Virus genome (UHGV): UHGV-0126489
DNA length: 12,682 nucleotides
Source of the DNA: a virus
Strand: one strand, 5' to 3'
Position numbers and translations under genes: made by a program. Positions 635-10,404 of the stretch are shown piece by piece. How positions within the stretch are numbered: position 1 is the stretch's first letter; every line of letters begins with the position of its first letter. The notes beneath the pieces were generated by a model. The model did not search any database, had not been told where the DNA came from, and was given only the letters and a program-made list of their open reading frames with translations.

Positions 635-1387
635 TTATCTCGTCACTTTTCTTAATTGCGCCTCAGCATATGCTTCTTCCTGCCAGCACTTTGTCACCAG
701 TTTATCAATGACATCTGCATATCCTTTGTACCACTGATAATCCGTCAGGTCTGGTACCAGCTTCTGGACATGATGCCGCGCCAGTGTGGTTGGTAAACGG
801 CTAAACCGATTTCCATTGCAACGCCCACAAATCTTATAAACAGGCGTGCCATGAAGCCGGGTCCTTTTTTCATCCAGGACAATACCTTTACCCTTACACC
901 CTCTGCACGCTGTGCTGACTTCTCCCTTACCATGACAATGCTGACATAGTTCCTTCACCCACTCTTCCTTGATAACAGATTCCCCGCTTCTGGAGTGTTT
1001 CACCACTTCGCGCAATACATTATGAAATCCAGTACCAGCACAATGCTCACAGCGAGCCTTACTTGCCGCAGACCTGGAATAATCAGCAAAGGCAAAATTC
1101 ACAAGGTAAGGGATGATCTGTAACCGGGTTTCTTCACTCAATTTGTTCAATGTCGGGTTATCCAGTGCCATCGCGTAATTGAGCAGACCTTCAATCGCAA
1201 ATTGAGGATCCTGAACACCAACTTTTGCCAGGAATAAGGCAAACCCAAGCGGTGCTTTCGACTGCACCATCCCCTGCGCAGCCATCACATCCGTAATCGT
1301 TAAACCACCTGAGCCTGTCGCCGGTGCGTCATCGCTCAATTTTGGAGATTTTGGGGAGTAATATTTTGGTAAGGCTTCAAGGTTCAT
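635..1387 (-). CDS. Q-like late antitermination protein (QuuQ-like, 250 aa) with four CxxCxGxG zinc-finger repeats
   Basis: ATG at 1387-1385. Translation contains CEHCAGTG, CQHCHGKG, CRGCKGKG and CGRCNGN. Sits at the distal end of the nin-like block, followed by a promoter-like sequence and terminator. Recalled length match to E. coli Qin QuuQ (250 aa), from memory only. Confidence 0.55.
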   Translation of the reverse strand: MNLEALPKYYSPKSPKLSDDAPATGSGGLTITDVMAAQGMVQSKAPLGFALFLAKVGVQDPQFAIEGLLNYAMALDNPTLNKLSEETRLQIIPYLVNFAFADYSRSAASKARCEHCAGTGFHNVLREVVKHSRSGESVIKEEWVKELCQHCHGKGEVSTACRGCKGKGIVLDEKRTRLHGTPVYKICGRCNGNRFSRLPTTLARHHVQKLVPDLTDYQWYKGYADVIDKLVTKCWQEEAYAEAQLRKVTR

Positions 1388-6212: not shown

Positions 6213-6391
6213 AGGACTGTCTCCTTCTGCCGGTTGAAATCACCCACAGCCCACTCTGCAAAGCTGTGGGTTACAATTTCCCTGTCACCTGGTACATTCA
6301 CTGCATAGCAATACTCCACCTTCGCTTTTCCACCCGGTACAGGAAGTGCAATCAGTTGCGAGCGACGGTAGTGTGTTGTTAAACTGTTCAT
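6053..6391 (-). CDS. Hypothetical protein (112-aa ORF); N-terminal about 55 aa look genuine, the remainder may be out of frame
   Basis: ATG at 6391 overlaps the upstream stop (ATGA), with GGAGA 9 nt upstream. After about codon 55 the translation becomes Ser-rich and low-complexity while the overlapping frame becomes protein-like. Confidence 0.3.
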
Positions 6392-6972
6392 GCGTTAGTT
6401 TCTCCACAACCAGAAGCAATCGACGCCACGACGCCCGGAGCTGCACACTCGCGGGCGTTACTCTTTTCCGGCGCACAAAAAACACGAAATAACAGTGTTA
6501 AATGCTCCTGCCACTTCGCCATTACTTGGTAGCTGTTCTCTTCGATTTGCTCACGCTCAGCCTGGTCAATAACTCCATCAGCAGTTGCCTTGCGTAAGTA
6601 CTGGGAATGCTTGCCAATCCATTCTATTGACTCCATCAGCCGCTGATTAATGTCACCATTGTCAATGTCATCAATGACCACCAGCGGCACAAACACCCCA
6701 TTACTACGACGGGCTATTGCATCTGTTACATGCCTGGTACCACTGGCATCCTGTAAAACCATGGCCCACTCAAGTGGAAAAATTTGATCCCCACCGCTAC
6801 GCAGTCTGTTATGCAATTGATCTTTTGCTGGGGTGATATCATCAGATTTATACAAACCAAGAATTTCTGCTGCTTCCTCATAGCCATGAGGTAAATCAGC
6901 AATCGTTCTTCGTATTGCTGCCACCAGCCATGCTGGTTGTTTATCAACTTTCCATTCAGGTTCTTTACCCAC
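6388..6972 (-). CDS. Hypothetical regulatory protein in the CII position (194 aa, GTG start 5 nt after the cro stop)
   Basis: Protein-like throughout ([27 protein letters not shown]...). Functional assignment is by gene order only. Confidence 0.35.
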
Positions 6973-6977
6973 GGTTT

Positions 6978-7175
6978 TTATGCCGCAGCACTGTTAGTCT
7001 TTTGATATAAAGACACGTCAACTTTCAGTTTCCCGTTAGTAATTTTTTCTAACTGGTACGCTCGGCCTTCAGGAATAATCTCAGGCCACTCTGAAACAGA
7101 CGGATGCTTAATACCTAGGGCTTCGGCGGTTTTACAAACTCCGCCGAAATAATTAATCACGTCGGATTTCCGCAT
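6978..7175 (-). CDS. cro: Cro-like repressor, 65 aa
   Basis: ATG at 7175 with GGGAGA 6 nt upstream; divergent from the repressor gene across the operator region; size and sequence pattern like lambda Cro. Confidence 0.7.
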   Translation of the reverse strand: MRKSDVINYFGGVCKTAEALGIKHPSVSEWPEIIPEGRAYQLEKITNGKLKVDVSLYQKTNSAAA

Positions 7176-7207: not shown

Positions 7208-7272
7208 ATGTAGGATATCCAACATGCCAATGTCAAGAATCCTACATGGGCATGTGGTAGGATTGCCTACAT
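7208..7272. promoter_or_regulatory. OR-like tripartite operator with divergent promoters (pR on minus strand; pRM region on plus)
   Basis: Three 18-bp sites: 7208-7225 ATGTAGGATATCCAACAT, 7230-7247 ATGTCAAGAATCCTACAT, 7255-7272 TGGTAGGATTGCCTACAT. Minus-strand TTGACA (7236-7231) - 17 nt - CTACAT (7213-7208). Site 3 overlaps the repressor ATG at 7271. Confidence 0.6.
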
Positions 7273-7915
7273 GATGAACATGAGTGATCGTATTCGCCAA
7301 AGGCGAAAAAAACTGAACCTGACACAACAAGCACTGGCTGATTTGACTGGTGTGAACCGTGTCACGGTTACTGGATGGGAAAAGGACGACTACCAACCAA
7401 ATGGAGCCAACCTTCAAGCCCTAGCCAACGCACTTAAATGCGATCCTCTGTGGCTTGTTAGCGGAAAAGGCTCGCCTGAACCAAAGATAAATCTAAAACC
7501 TGAAATATTCGCAGTTAAAAAAGTCCCCCTCATCTCGTGGGTTCAGGCGGGTTCATGGACAATGACGGAGCCTGGTGTCAGGAAAGAAGATGCTGAAGAG
7601 TGGGTTTATACTACCGCCCTTGTATCAGAAATGGCATTTGCACTACGGGTCCGTGGTGATTCAATGACCAATCCCCTCGGCTCACCATCGATACCAGAAG
7701 GTTCTATCGTTATCGTAGAGCCAGATATTATTGATACAGAGTGTATTAACGGAAAAATCGTTGTTGCCCATATCAATGGTGGGCAAGAAGCGACACTCAA
7801 AAAATTTGTTGAGGACTGGCCGAACAGGTATCTCGTCCCACTAAATCCTAACTATAAAACTATTGAATGCGGTGAGAACTGCAGAATAGTTGGTCTTGTC
7901 ATAATGGATTTTTGA
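7271..7915 (+). CDS. Prophage repressor, P22 C2 / lambda CI type (XRE HTH N-terminal domain plus S24 LexA-like autopeptidase), 214 aa
   Basis: N-terminal HTH (IRQRRKKLNLTQQALADLTGVNRVTVTGWE); C-terminal GDSM Ser nucleophile motif and downstream Lys; collinear with recalled P22 C2. Start could be any of the ATGs at 7271/7274/7280. Confidence 0.85.
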   Translation: MMNMSDRIRQRRKKLNLTQQALADLTGVNRVTVTGWEKDDYQPNGANLQALANALKCDPLWLVSGKGSPEPKINLKPEIFAVKKVPLISWVQAGSWTMTEPGVRKEDAEEWVYTTALVSEMAFALRVRGDSMTNPLGSPSIPEGSIVIVEPDIIDTECINGKIVVAHINGGQEATLKKFVEDWPNRYLVPLNPNYKTIECGENCRIVGLVIMDF

Positions 7916-7977: not shown

Positions 7978-8031
7978 ATGTAGGATAACCAACATAAACT
8001 CTTGACACTTGCATGTTGGATATCCTACATT
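7978..8031 (+). promoter_or_regulatory. OL-like operator pair with pL-like promoter directed rightward
   Basis: Sites 7978-7995 ATGTAGGATAACCAACAT and 8013-8030 ATGTTGGATATCCTACAT. TTGACA (8002-8007) - 17 nt - CTACAT (8025-8030). The segment 8002-8030 is nearly identical to the pR segment on the other strand. Confidence 0.55.
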
Positions 8032-8148
8032 TGTTTTTAGAGTTGTGGTGAATGCGCAGGCTGATTCGCGAAAGACATTGCAGCTATTGCGGAAAAGAGC
8101 TGTTCGGCGGGGCAATTAAACGCCCGTATCTGGAGGTTAAAGAACAAA

Positions 8149-8424
8149 ATGAAAGTCCAGATTTTAAACAATAACTGTGAAGTCGTTTGGTCATACGACA
8201 TAGCCGCCCCTGTAGATCAGAGCGGCGATAGCTGGACCAATGGGAAACATCAGATTATGGCTGGAGTTGTGTTCTCTTTACGCCGTGCTTTGGAACAGGC
8301 TGAAGTATTTCCATCAGACCCTGAATGGAAATGGCCTTTTTCTATTTGTCCAAATTCGGAGAGTACATTTCAGAAAATTGGTCAGAAAGTCGCACTCGAA
8401 GAGCATCAGCCAACTGTTTCCTGA
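8149..8424 (+). CDS. Hypothetical protein, first ORF after pL (91 aa); no arginine-rich N-like motif
   Basis: ATG at 8149 with GGAGG 11 nt upstream; Trp-rich, protein-like. Overlaps the convergent 81-aa ORF by 83 nt. Confidence 0.35.
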   Translation: MKVQILNNNCEVVWSYDIAAPVDQSGDSWTNGKHQIMAGVVFSLRRALEQAEVFPSDPEWKWPFSICPNSESTFQKIGQKVALEEHQPTVS

Positions 8425-8587
8425 TTTTTTCAGGTAACTCGTCGGCATCGCAGAAACAACAACGCTCGATCATGTTGAAAGCCGATTCGTAGAACTGTTT
8501 CTGCTGAGTGTCGCTGAGACAGGAAAAGAGCGACGTTACGATGATTTTATTAATTGCATTATCAAGTTCTTTTTCATCAAAAGTCAT
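8342..8587 (-). CDS. Hypothetical small protein (81 aa), transcribed against the pL operon
   Basis: ATG at 8587 with AAGGA 7 nt upstream; helical-looking translation containing CCFC. Confidence 0.35.
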   Translation of the reverse strand: MTFDEKELDNAINKIIVTSLFSCLSDTQQKQFYESAFNMIERCCFCDADELPEKIRKQLADALRVRLSDQFSEMYSPNLDK

Positions 8588-8840
8588 TTGATTTTCCTTT
8601 TATGTATACGGGCTTAAAAGGATACCACCGAGCCTGAAGTGGTGAAAAGACAGGCACATAACAGCTAAGTATTTTCAACCAGAGAGAATCCTTAGCGTTG
8701 TGGTGAATGCGGCTCAGCGCACGCGGGTTAAGGTTGAGGCTGACAGTCGACCTTCTGTGGATACCCACCCGTCTGGTGTGCAACCTTCGCCAGGCACCGG
8801 GAGGCACCCGGCACCACAACTTTATGCTGTGTGTAGTCCT

Positions 8841-8887
8841 GGCGGTACCAGTTTGTACCCTTGCTTCAGGCTGGTACCGTCCTTTTT
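8841..8887 (+). terminator. Candidate intrinsic terminator / structured RNA 3' end
   Basis: GGCGGTACC(AG) pairs with (CT)GGTACCGTCC around a 19-23 nt loop, followed by TTTTT at 8883-8887. Orientation matches pL transcription. Confidence 0.4.
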
Positions 8888-9024
8888 ACAAAACAGAGAA
8901 GAGCATCACCGGACGACGGGCTCATAACCCAATCCATCCGGGCGGCTGCCGCCGCAGGTGTTCTTCTCTGTTTTGTGGAGAAACTAATCGGCCTTGCAGG
9001 GTCGATATGATGAGGAGCAGCAAA

Positions 9025-9387
9025 ATGGCTAGCGAACGCAGTACTGATGTGCAGGCATTTATTGGGGAGCTGGACGGCGGCGTATTTGAAACCAAAATCG
9101 GCGCAGTTCTCAGTGAAGTCGCTTCCGGTGTGATGAACACGAAAACCAAAGGTAAGGTCTCGCTCAACCTGGAAATCGAACCATTTGATGAGAACCGTGT
9201 GAAAATCAAACACAAACTCTCATATGTTCGCCCGACTAACCGCGGGAAAATTTCCGAAGAAGACACCACCGAAACGCCGATGTATGTCAATCGCGGTGGT
9301 CGCCTGACTATTCTGCAGGAAGACCAGGGACAATTACTGACTCTTGCCGGTGAACCTGACGGAAAACTCCGCGCAGCAGGTCGTTAA
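9025..9387 (+). CDS. yfdP: YfdP-like protein of unknown function, 120 aa
   Basis: ATG at 9025 with GAGGAG 7 nt upstream. The ORF track's 226-aa version includes a non-coding, structured upstream part. Length equals recalled K-12 YfdP (120 aa); gene order yfdP-Q-R-S matches. Confidence 0.5.
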   Translation: MASERSTDVQAFIGELDGGVFETKIGAVLSEVASGVMNTKTKGKVSLNLEIEPFDENRVKIKHKLSYVRPTNRGKISEEDTTETPMYVNRGGRLTILQEDQGQLLTLAGEPDGKLRAAGR

Positions 9388-9452: not shown

Positions 9453-10277
9453 ATGTCTCAGAACTTAGACGCAACCGCAATTAATCAAATCCATGCCCTT
9501 ATTTCTGCTCAGGGTGTTAATGAAATTATCAATAATATTGGTGCCGATGCTGTGGCATTGCCTGAGAATTTCCGCATTCATGATCTGGAAAAATTTAATT
9601 TAAATCGCTTCCGTTTCCGTGGTGCACTTTCCACTGCCAGCATCGATGACTTTACCCGTTATTCTAAAGATCTTGCAGATGAAGGCACCCGCTGCTTTAT
9701 CGATGCCGATAATATGCGAGCAGTCAGTGTGCTTAACCTGGGTACTATTGATGAACCAGGTCACGCAGATAACACCGCCACTCTCAAACTGAAAAAGACA
9801 GCACCGTTCTCTGCTCTGTTGTCTGTTAATGGCGAGCGTAACTCCCAGAAGTCACTGGCAGAATGGATTGAAGACTGGGCCGACTACCTTGTGGGCTTTG
9901 ATGCTAATGGTGACGCCATTCAGGCAACCAAAGCGGCTGCGGCGATCCGTAAAATCACAATTGAAGCGAACCAGACCGCTGATTTTGAAGACAATGACTT
10001 CAGCGGCAAACGCTCCCTGATGGAGTCTGTCGAAGCGAAGACCAAAGACATTATGCCAGTGGCATTTGAATTTAAATGCGTTCCGTTTGAAGGTCTGAAA
10101 GAACGTCCGTTTAAATTACGCCTCAGCATTATCACTGGCGATCGTCCTGTACTGGTTCTGCGCATTATTCAGCTGGAGGCGGTGCAGGAAGAAATGGCTA
10201 ACGAATTTCGTGATCTGCTTGTTGAGAAATTCAAGGACAGCAAAGTAGAAACCTTTATTGGTACTTTCACCGCCTGA
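9453..10277 (+). CDS. yfdQ: YfdQ-like protein (DUF2303 family), 274 aa
   Basis: ATG at 9453 with GAGGA 6 nt upstream; length equals recalled K-12 YfdQ (274 aa). Family assignment from memory of gene order and length, not alignment. Confidence 0.55.
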
Positions 10278-10289
10278 TTTCATTACTGC

Positions 10290-10311
10290 AAATGCCCCTG
10301 CGGGGGCATTT
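10290..10311 (+). terminator. Hairpin AAATGCCCC-TGCG-GGGGCATTT after the yfdQ-like gene (candidate terminator)
   Basis: 9-bp stem with GC core and A/U-rich ends; no separate U-tract beyond the stem. Confidence 0.35.
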
Positions 10312-10404
10312 ATGGAAACGTAATTTACTCAATAATCGCCGGATGGTGAGGGATTCTTTTTACCAGAATTCAGCGCGGTGCAGCGCATATACGTGGAGAA
10401 CAAA

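Follow-up and report, generated by a model that had tools for sequence, protein, structure and literature searches.

Small RNAs (sRNAs) of the STnc100, EcOnc27/sRNA103 and PasD1/2 type are encoded by prophages and have been reported to be bound by Hfq (PMC12711010; bioRxiv 10.64898/2026.05.13.724894). For the published members of this class, the usual location is 3' of stx2B or close to Q (PMC12711010; PMC12370729; bioRxiv 10.64898/2026.05.13.724894), and PasD has been detected on northern blots and has a 3' terminator stem-loop followed by a U tract (PMC12711010; bioRxiv 10.64898/2026.05.13.724894). The published PasD and STnc100 consensus was made with RNAalifold, which models no pseudoknots. 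The put RNA of phage HK022, to which the locus described here had been likened, comprises two stem-loops in about 70 nt and binds to the zinc-binding domain of beta' (PMC9378689). Here we describe an RNA element in the virus genome UHGV-0126489, of which a stretch of 12,682 nucleotides (the window) was analyzed. The element lies between the predicted early left promoter, pL, and yfdP, a region that a preliminary description made from the sequence alone had named as the likeliest place for an undescribed regulatory element. The element is a non-coding RNA on the plus strand whose core folds into a five-helix junction locked by a covarying pseudoknot. The earlier expectation was borne out in that the structured RNA is real, but not in its novelty, as the RNA is a divergent relative of Rfam STnc100. 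Since sRNAs of that class are known already, what is new here is the sub-type, the setting in the pL operon and the richer structure.

The evidence for the fold (Table 1) came from comparison of copies across the family. The invariant 20-mer ACCGGGARGCACCCGGCACC was used as a query against public genomes and viral contigs, which identified at least 197 distinct cores and at least 107 non-redundant representatives, nearly all of the matches listed being from Enterobacterales. Alignment A1 contained 103 cores, Rfam-positive copies included, and was used to build a covariance model, R1; realignment with R1 produced alignment A2, with 139 matches from 100 sources and 134 distinct rows. In these 134 rows, 96.5% of 3247 cells were able to pair, compared with 80.8% in shuffles and 41–48% when the partners were slid. 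Changes on both sides were seen in 21 of 25 pairs, every helix covaried, and the structure of the GC-rich segment, for which the preliminary description had suggested a covariance-aware analysis, is thus conserved across homologues. G-U pairs were frequent (45 at one position, for example), and it is their abundance that places the RNA on the plus strand here; the element was also always co-oriented with flanking tRNAs and genes. The closing stem P1 ranged from 6 to 10 bp across the family, with most copies having 6, 7 or 9 bp, and P2 occurred in two sub-types, CCCCC/GGGG in most copies and GCGGC/GCACGC in the window.

The pseudoknot was assessed with a register-free test in which the control paired the two halves between different copies. 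A pseudoknot of at least 5 weighted bp could form in 87% of copies, compared with 26% of the permuted pairings, and complementarity was kept through 97 distinct helix types. The sequences involved are AAGGUU/AACCUU in the window and ST64B, AAGGCU/AGCCUU in phiES15 and UGGUUAU/AUAACCA in phage P1, with CUGGAU/AUCCAG and CCAGUC/GACUGG among those found elsewhere. Two other forms of the test were not useful: a column-wise count fails on the model alignment, in which the loop partner occurs in two registers (best 57% paired), and a wide-window version was uninformative owing to contamination by P3. The AAGGUU of the window can also pair locally with GACCUU, an alternative that on inspection was weaker in ST64B and phiES15.

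With regard to family membership, the Rfam search proposed in the preliminary description returned nothing for the whole window at gathering thresholds, the cut-off for STnc100 (RF02076) being 47 bits, but a permissive scan gave a full-length match to STnc100 at 8667–8889 with 41.2 bits (E = 3e-7). Our own model R1 scored the window copy at 81.5 bits (E ~1e-23), the match spanning 8692–8827. Copies of the commoner CCCCC type in the same set passed the Rfam cut-off, with 50–104 bits, and the copies that fell below it were those of the GCGGC type (the window, phage P1, ST64B, phiES15 and others) and of the mEp460 type. By these scores, the window copy belongs to an uncatalogued branch of the STnc100/PasD/EcOnc27 class. 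Other matches in the permissive Rfam scan were judged to be chance: Termite-leu in the cI terminator, MIR1094 in the long hairpin, mir-645, ftsZ-DE on the opposite strand, and Sphinx_2. R1 identified a single full copy in the window; neither the minus strand nor the pR operon had one. Candidates for a second full copy at 10277–10394 (14.9 bits, the yfdQ terminator hairpin) and at 111–155 (a simple hairpin) were rejected.

The preliminary description had considered the GC-rich segment to be non-coding, while allowing that it might prove to be the 5' part of a longer gene with no conserved structure. Two open frames do cross the module, 8700–8927 (75-aa product) and 8707–9387 (226 aa), and database annotations from SfIV, K-12 and PGAP agree with their being genes, PGAP calling 8700–9010 a frameshifted pseudogene. 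It is nevertheless very improbable, in our assessment, that the sequence encodes either a longer YfdP of 226 aa starting at 8707 or a YmfH-like protein. Window and ST64B are separated by indels of 3, 1, 1, 19, 1 and 1 nt, a total that is not divisible by three; the frame is shifted as a result, and the open frames of the two genomes translate homologous nucleotides differently. The substitutions are explained by base-pair covariation, not codon conservation. In addition, the 8700–8927 product had no PHROG or Pfam match, the module also occurs without yfdP behind it, and the same core is intergenic in phage P1 and in tRNA arrays. The RNA reading stands, and the 226-aa ORF from 8707 is an artefact, produced by a frame that stays open through the RNA.

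The same artefact is seen in the annotation of relatives. In SfIV, gp34 (locus L249, 2082–2762), annotated as a 226-aa hypothetical protein, is YfdP extended upstream across the whole module, and ymfH of K-12 ("protein YmfH"; locus L250, 2501–2820, homologous to window 8692–9010) is an ORF over a decayed e14 copy. The e14 copy of K-12, at 65.5 bits, lacks one base of the P6 loop and has A in place of G in the P6 stem. P6 is otherwise invariant, and these losses are consistent with decay, e14 being a defective prophage. Over-expression of ymfH was listed in a screen as a trigger of the retron-Sen2 toxin RcaT (bioRxiv 10.1101/2020.06.22.160242), and the active agent of that phenotype could be the RNA.

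The core does not stand alone. The best explanation of 8692–8976 is a single non-coding RNA module comprising the core, a single-stranded stretch, an intrinsic terminator and a long hairpin. The flank upstream of the module is common to SfIV and e14, and its 5' part is also present in phiES15. Downstream of the core, the single-stranded GCUGUGUGUAGUC is conserved in ST64B and phiES15 despite their different terminator sequences, which is the pattern expected of an sRNA seed. The inverted repeats and T5 tract named in the preliminary description were all found in the GC-rich segment, as P6 and as the stem and T5 of the terminator-like hairpin; the latter was missed by a terminator consensus scan because its loop exceeds 8 nt. 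The region 8826–9030 folds far better than shuffles (z = -7.3). The 5' arm of the terminator, UGGCGGUACCAGUUUGUAC (8841–8860), resembles DicF, matching the DicF sequence (UGGCGGUAUCAGUUUUAC) at about 16 of 18 bases, although the Rfam model for DicF (RF00039, cut-off 48) gave only 15.7 bits (E = 2.3) at 8828–8882.

The long hairpin, which follows the T5 directly, is conserved with the module, shows a compensatory exchange of G-C for A-U in ST64B, and stays with the module where yfdP and yfdQ are missing or replaced. It is a likely candidate for an RNase III site, or a candidate 5'-untranslated region element. The lambda N leader carries an RNase III hairpin, to which the long hairpin is comparable in position. 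Four features in all had been overlooked in the preliminary description: this hairpin (8888–8976), a 20-nt repeat at 8037 and 8692, the minus-strand ORF at 8342–8587, and the catalogued relative STnc100.

Near-identical copies of 8692–8890 were found in 2043 of 5426 complete E. coli genomes. BLAST also identified near-identical copies in SfV, SfII and SfIV, a copy with 88% identity in ST64B and one with 77% identity in Cronobacter phiES15. Unexpectedly, phage P1 and P1-like phages were also found to carry a copy, which lies between tRNA-Thr/upl and tciA within the ban operon that C1 controls (locus L002, 2497–2660; AF234172 ~70073–70236). Relatives extend across Enterobacterales prophages, phage P1 and plasmids. 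Phage P1 has a "dicF-like region" annotated in the same operon as its copy. Right after the closing stem of that copy, AACCUUAUU...AAUGAGGUU, which overlaps the 3' strand of the stem, can sequester the Shine-Dalgarno sequence of tciA, and it is possible that this arrangement is a translational switch of tciA. In ST64B (locus L003, 409–597, minus strand in the locus) a C4 antisense RNA (79.7 bits) lies beside isrK (64.3 bits) on the pR side of the immunity region; Rfam found no counterpart of this pair in the window.

The surroundings of the copies were diverse. An intrinsic terminator was present within 100 nt in about half of the representatives, and there are others in which the sequence continues into an ORF that has a Shine-Dalgarno sequence. 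Among the matches listed, about 30 of 279 copies are part of tRNA arrays on the same strand, and at three loci (L089, 4615–4825; L099, 4787–4975; L125, ~440–635) a tRNA-Met-type gene begins 9–12 nt after P1, where RNase P cleavage of the adjoining tRNA would define the 3' end of the element. Tandem arrays in the R1 realignment set reach five copies. Arrays of three to five copies were seen at L047 (6320–7020), L037 (3100–4500), L048 (940–2000) and L090 (4130–5930), those of L037 and L048 being on a Pantoea plasmid. The array of L047, in Superficieibacter, consists of three copies, each followed by its own terminator, with a clear promoter-like site before the first copy, and is directly upstream of the holin and endolysin genes. 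A promoter-like -10 hexamer ends 8–11 nt before GGUGAA in 13 of the 103 representatives, from which the RNA would begin at P1.

A second, incomplete copy of the element is found at the start of the pL transcript predicted for the window. The preliminary description had pointed to two short hairpins in this leader, and both, near 8080–8103 and 8110–8125, form in the minimum-free-energy fold; however, the leader (8039–8148) folds no better than shuffles (z = +0.83). The hairpins owe their significance to homology with the mEp460 copy, not to thermodynamics, and are the remnant of a truncated copy. This copy keeps the 5' strand of P1 (GUUGUGGUG), the AAU joiner, P2 and the inner hairpins, and lacks the 3' ~49 nt, that is, P6 and the 3' strand of P1. 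In alignment with the first ~88 nt of the mEp460 element, the leader shows only two substitutions from AG at 8039–8040 to the CCCGT that ends at 8127, after which the homology stops. R1 assigned 3 bits to the leader fragment, compared with 23.5 bits for the complete mEp460 copy, which closes the same P1.

The two copies in the window share a 20-nt direct repeat, TTAG(A/C)GTTGTGGTGAATGCG, at 8037 and at 8692, and this common 5' end looks like a recombination joint. The P1 strand of the truncated copy begins about 5 nt after the predicted pL start. It could in principle pair with 8812–8820, but we see no reason to consider such a pairing functional. A different conserved RNA-like pL leader is present in e14 (locus L250, 1690–1790), SfIV (L249, 1150–1240) and ST64B (L003, 2655–2740), at the place where the window has its truncated STnc100-type copy. 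These leaders have, in order, ACAGGCAGGACGCCCACGAAGUAGCC, a covarying stem (CCGGU/ACCGG versus CCUGG/CUAGG) and GGAUGAUUCG, the last of which has a faint likeness to the GGAUGA of HK022 putL and putR. The ST64B leader runs on as a GC-rich stretch of about 300 nt with a terminator at its end.

Based on the structure of the module and on its characterized relatives, our preferred interpretation, which we hold to be about evenly poised between right and wrong, is that the module encodes an early-expressed, Hfq-dependent sRNA that is released by termination or processing, and that its terminator also attenuates pL transcription. Upon prophage induction, transcription from pL would pass through two small ORFs into the module, where most polymerases would stop at the hairpin and T5 (8887) to release a stable RNA. 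The 3' hairpin and U tail would bind Hfq, as in the characterized relatives, and the exposed GCUGUGUGUAGUC stretch would pair with target mRNAs in trans. Transcripts that read through may be cleaved within the 25-bp hairpin, with RNase III the probable enzyme; the sRNA would be freed by this cleavage, and the yfdPQRS message would gain a 5' end of its own. DicF is made by this route. The terminator would act as a tL1-like attenuator of the left operon that limits entry into yfdPQRS, and the constant core would most likely be a stabilizing or protein-binding scaffold. The copy at 8043–8127 would be a defunct, truncated remnant of recombination at the 20-nt 5' end that the two copies have in common. 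Of the identities offered in the preliminary description, two, the sRNA and the tL1-like terminator, are in agreement with what is seen in relatives.

Several observations weigh against this interpretation. A five-helix pseudoknotted core with invariant paired bases exceeds what a base-pairing sRNA needs, and the terminator and seed are not universal, about half of the family having no nearby terminator. Some copies lie directly before an ORF, as with tciA in phage P1, or 9–12 nt before a tRNA. In the window, no promoter was found just upstream of the full copy, which would therefore depend on read-through from pL across an antisense ORF; the terminator combines a large loop with a run of just five U residues, so that its efficiency is uncertain; and no complementary target for 8826–8838 was found within the window beyond chance.

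If the core remained on its polymerase as a processive antiterminator acting in cis, as put and the Bacillus EAR do, it would carry that polymerase past the terminator of the module and further ones downstream, and could replace N in these N-less lambdoid phages. EAR is a pseudoknotted element of about 120 nt, and a complex pseudoknotted core with invariant paired bases is as expected for an RNA that binds a protein or RNA polymerase (RNAP). This possibility is favored by the lack of N, nut or boxA here and by the recurrence of the family just downstream of major phage promoters, with a copy at about +5 of pL in the window, another in the C1-controlled ban operon, 13 of 103 copies starting at a promoter, and an array between a promoter and lysis genes. 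We consider it rather unlikely, however. The promoter-proximal copy in the window, being truncated, is unable to close P1; the pR operon contains no copy although its transcription must reach Q; and arrays with a terminator after each copy make little sense for an antiterminator. Copies in late operons are behind Q, which already provides antitermination. In addition, relatives accumulate as discrete sRNAs, PasD having a 3' terminator stem-loop (bioRxiv 10.64898/2026.05.13.724894). The put-like RNA raised in the preliminary description was rejected, as the element shares no sequence or architecture with putL and putR as read from the HK022 genome, in which R1 found nothing.

A processed, stable RNA is a somewhat stronger contender, although still a minority possibility in our view. 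Here the core would be excised from polycistronic phage transcripts in the manner of a tRNA, by RNase P, E or III, and act through its constant fold, for example as a decoy or platform for a host or phage protein, or in the punctuation or stability of neighboring messages, any seed being secondary. The copies in tRNA arrays, including the three with a tRNA 9–12 nt after P1, and the phage P1 copy, in an operon with three tRNAs and the dicF-like region, are in keeping with this, as is the way P6 runs into the 3' strand of P1, resembling a T arm running into an acceptor stem. Up to five tandem copies would suggest a dosage effect, and the AAU joiner, the UNNGC loop of P2 and P6 stay constant, whereas the inner hairpins and the pseudoknot differ in sequence from copy to copy. 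The e14 "ymfH" clone, in essence a clone of this RNA, possibly adds to the case as a trigger of the retron toxin (bioRxiv 10.1101/2020.06.22.160242), but that phenotype could come from a peptide. A tRNA-like RNA as such was rejected, since ARAGORN identified nothing in the window, the length of P1 is variable with no tRNA-like 7+5 measure, and no NCCA follows P1; nor was there a consistently co-occurring gene for a partner protein. More remote still is a riboswitch-like regulator in cis, with the core as aptamer and the terminator, or a hairpin sequestering the Shine-Dalgarno sequence, as expression platform. The layout of structured core, terminator and ORF, the riboswitch-like complexity and the tciA arrangement of phage P1 would fit such a regulator, but inspection found no convincing alternative pairing between core and terminator here, about half of the copies have no nearby terminator, and many have their own terminator with no downstream gene, or are in arrays or before tRNAs. 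The genes downstream (yfdP, kil, tciA, holin) are also mutually unrelated, making this reading improbable.

Returning to the sRNA interpretation, its attraction should not obscure that the architecture goes beyond the needs of a seed-and-terminator sRNA, which prompts one to ask for a binding partner of the constant core. We would tentatively entertain the idea that the core is an RNA domain in its own right, with sRNA activity secondary; it might be a novel type of RNAP-binding processive antiterminator, working like put or EAR, or else serve a host factor as decoy or scaffold. If so, temperate enterobacterial phages would place this core behind pL, pR' and the ban promoter of phage P1. For the STnc100/PasD class as a whole, the covariation-supported junction and pseudoknot supply a three-dimensional architecture that can be tested, and the module marks a likely gating point of pL transcription in N-less phages of the SfV/e14 type. 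The sub-type escapes Rfam annotation and has repeatedly been annotated as protein (K-12 ymfH, SfIV gp34, PGAP "frameshifted" pseudogenes); correction of this would remove one y-gene from K-12, where the ymfH retron trigger is possibly RNA-mediated.

The window is from a lambdoid prophage of E. coli of the SfV/CPS-53/e14 type, and near-identical prophages are present in many sequenced strains. The sigma70-like pL is positioned 3' of cI and the cI terminator, has a predicted start at ~8038/8039, and is flanked by operator-like inverted repeats at 7978–7995 and 8013–8030. The gene yfdP is followed by yfdQ and then yfdR. A strong hairpin, AAAUGCCCCUGCGGGGGCAUUU, in the yfdQ–yfdR spacer accounts for the weak, spurious match to the family model in that region, and in some relatives that have yfdP and yfdQ deleted it is directly 3' of the RNA module.

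The absence of an N-like antiterminator between pL and yfdP, as claimed in the preliminary description, was upheld. No N-like protein or nut site was found there, boxA-like matches were at chance level (4 found versus 4.9 expected), and neither the 8149–8424 product, the first ORF of the operon, nor that of 8342–8587 has an arginine-rich motif. The former had a match to PHROG 3195 and none to Pfam, and is in the same phage family as the products of SfV orf33-type ORFs. The two ORFs overlap by 83 nt on opposite strands; SfV has the plus-strand orf33 annotated at the matching position, and PGAP annotates the minus-strand ORF only, to which pL transcription would be antisense. The 5' region of the minus-strand gene, which has the hairpin at 8624–8643, is conserved along with the RNA module. 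Positional analogues of this gene are found just 5' of the element in e14 (ymfI) and in SfIV (minus-strand ORFs).

Table 1. Features of the window. Positions are those of the 12,682-nt stretch.
Feature	Position	Strand	Remarks
Structured RNA core, 124 nt	8697–8820	+	Identified by Rfam, R1, covariation and pseudoknot test
P1, closing stem	8697–8705 with 8812–8820		
AAU joiner	8706–8708		Invariant
P2	8709–8724		5 bp, one-base bulge, UNNGC loop
P3	8725–8727 with 8768–8770		GGG with CCC, 3 bp; abuts P2, encloses variable hairpin region
Pseudoknot	8730–8735 with 8782–8787		AAGGUU with AACCUU; bases just after the P3 5' strand and P5 loop
P5 hairpin	8771–8776 with 8790–8795		Abuts P3
A8796	8796		Single A between P5 and P6
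P6	8797–8811		Invariant CCGGG-AGGCA-CCCGG (CCGGGAGGCACCCGG); runs straight into the P1 3' strand
Conserved upstream flank	8624–8691	+	Hairpin ACCACCGAGCCTGAAGTGGT (8624–8643) and spacer
Single-stranded stretch	8826–8838	+	GCUGUGUGUAGUC; between core and terminator; candidate base-pairing seed
Intrinsic-terminator-like hairpin	8841–8887	+	Stem 8841–8855 with 8867–8881 (GGTACCAG...CTGGTACC), 15 bp; T5 8883–8887
Long hairpin	8888–8976	+	25-nt arms 8888–8912 with 8952–8976, 84% complementary; directly after T5
Truncated copy of RNA element (mEp460 sub-type)	8043–8127	+	5' two-thirds; third sub-type
pL, sigma70-like promoter	8002–8031	+	TTGACA 8002, 18-nt spacer, TACATT ending 8031; 10/12 matches
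Small ORF, 91 aa	8149–8424	+	PHROG 3195 match only; no Pfam match
Small ORF, 81 aa (PGAP WP_000141753)	8342–8587	-	PHROG 3311; overlaps 3' end of the 8149–8424 ORF
yfdP, 120 aa	9025–9387	+	True start 9025
cI (LexA family)	7271–7915	+	Own terminator after it
cro	6978–7175		pR operon, leftward
cII-like gene	6388–6972		pR operon, leftward
Q antiterminator	635–1387		PF03589; end of leftward pR operon

When set beside the catalogued members of its class, the element has many of the features of STnc100, EcOnc27 and PasD: a closing stem GGUG...CACC, the AAU joiner, a P2 with a UNNGC loop, P5, the invariant P6, a terminator after the core and a prophage location. It differs in its P2, in which GCGGC/GCACGC represents three compensatory swaps relative to CCCCC/GGGG, and in being in the early left operon upstream of yfdP, the published STnc100 and PasD members being near stx2B or Q. 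The Rfam STnc100 consensus structure in the match has neither the pseudoknot nor the P3 found here.

The HK022 put system is similar in being from an N-less lambdoid phage with a structured RNA a few nucleotides from the pL start (in the window, the truncated copy) and terminators downstream. By contrast, the element described here is a pseudoknotted five-helix junction of about 124 nt, without sequence similarity to put, and its relatives terminate right after the element. HK022 has put copies just after pL and in the pR operon, whereas here the full copy is about 650 nt downstream and there is none in pR. The N-nut system of lambda and P22 was rejected as a counterpart on the basis of the first pL ORF, which is not arginine-rich, and the chance-level boxA matches. 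Both boxB and P6 have a 5-bp stem and a 5-nt loop; unlike boxB loops, however, the P6 loop, AGGCA, does not begin with G, and it is invariant across unrelated phages.

DicF, an sRNA from the dicB operon of the Qin prophage, is likewise encoded in a repressor-controlled early prophage operon, and the 3' module shares with it UGGCGGUAYCAGUUUNUAC and a terminator followed by a long double-stranded RNA hairpin that is a candidate RNase III site. However, DicF has no large 5' core, the RF00039 gathering score was not reached, and by our own reading the bases of DicF that pair with ftsZ are not conserved here. Lastly, lambda 6S RNA and StxS, which are ended at tR', resemble the RNA proposed here as promoter-proximal leader RNAs with an intrinsic terminator that a modified polymerase would read through. 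The operon here is pL instead of pR' and the RNA fold is unrelated, and we know of no antiterminator for pL here. The members of the family that lie ahead of lysis genes, on the other hand, occupy exactly the position of lambda 6S RNA/StxS.

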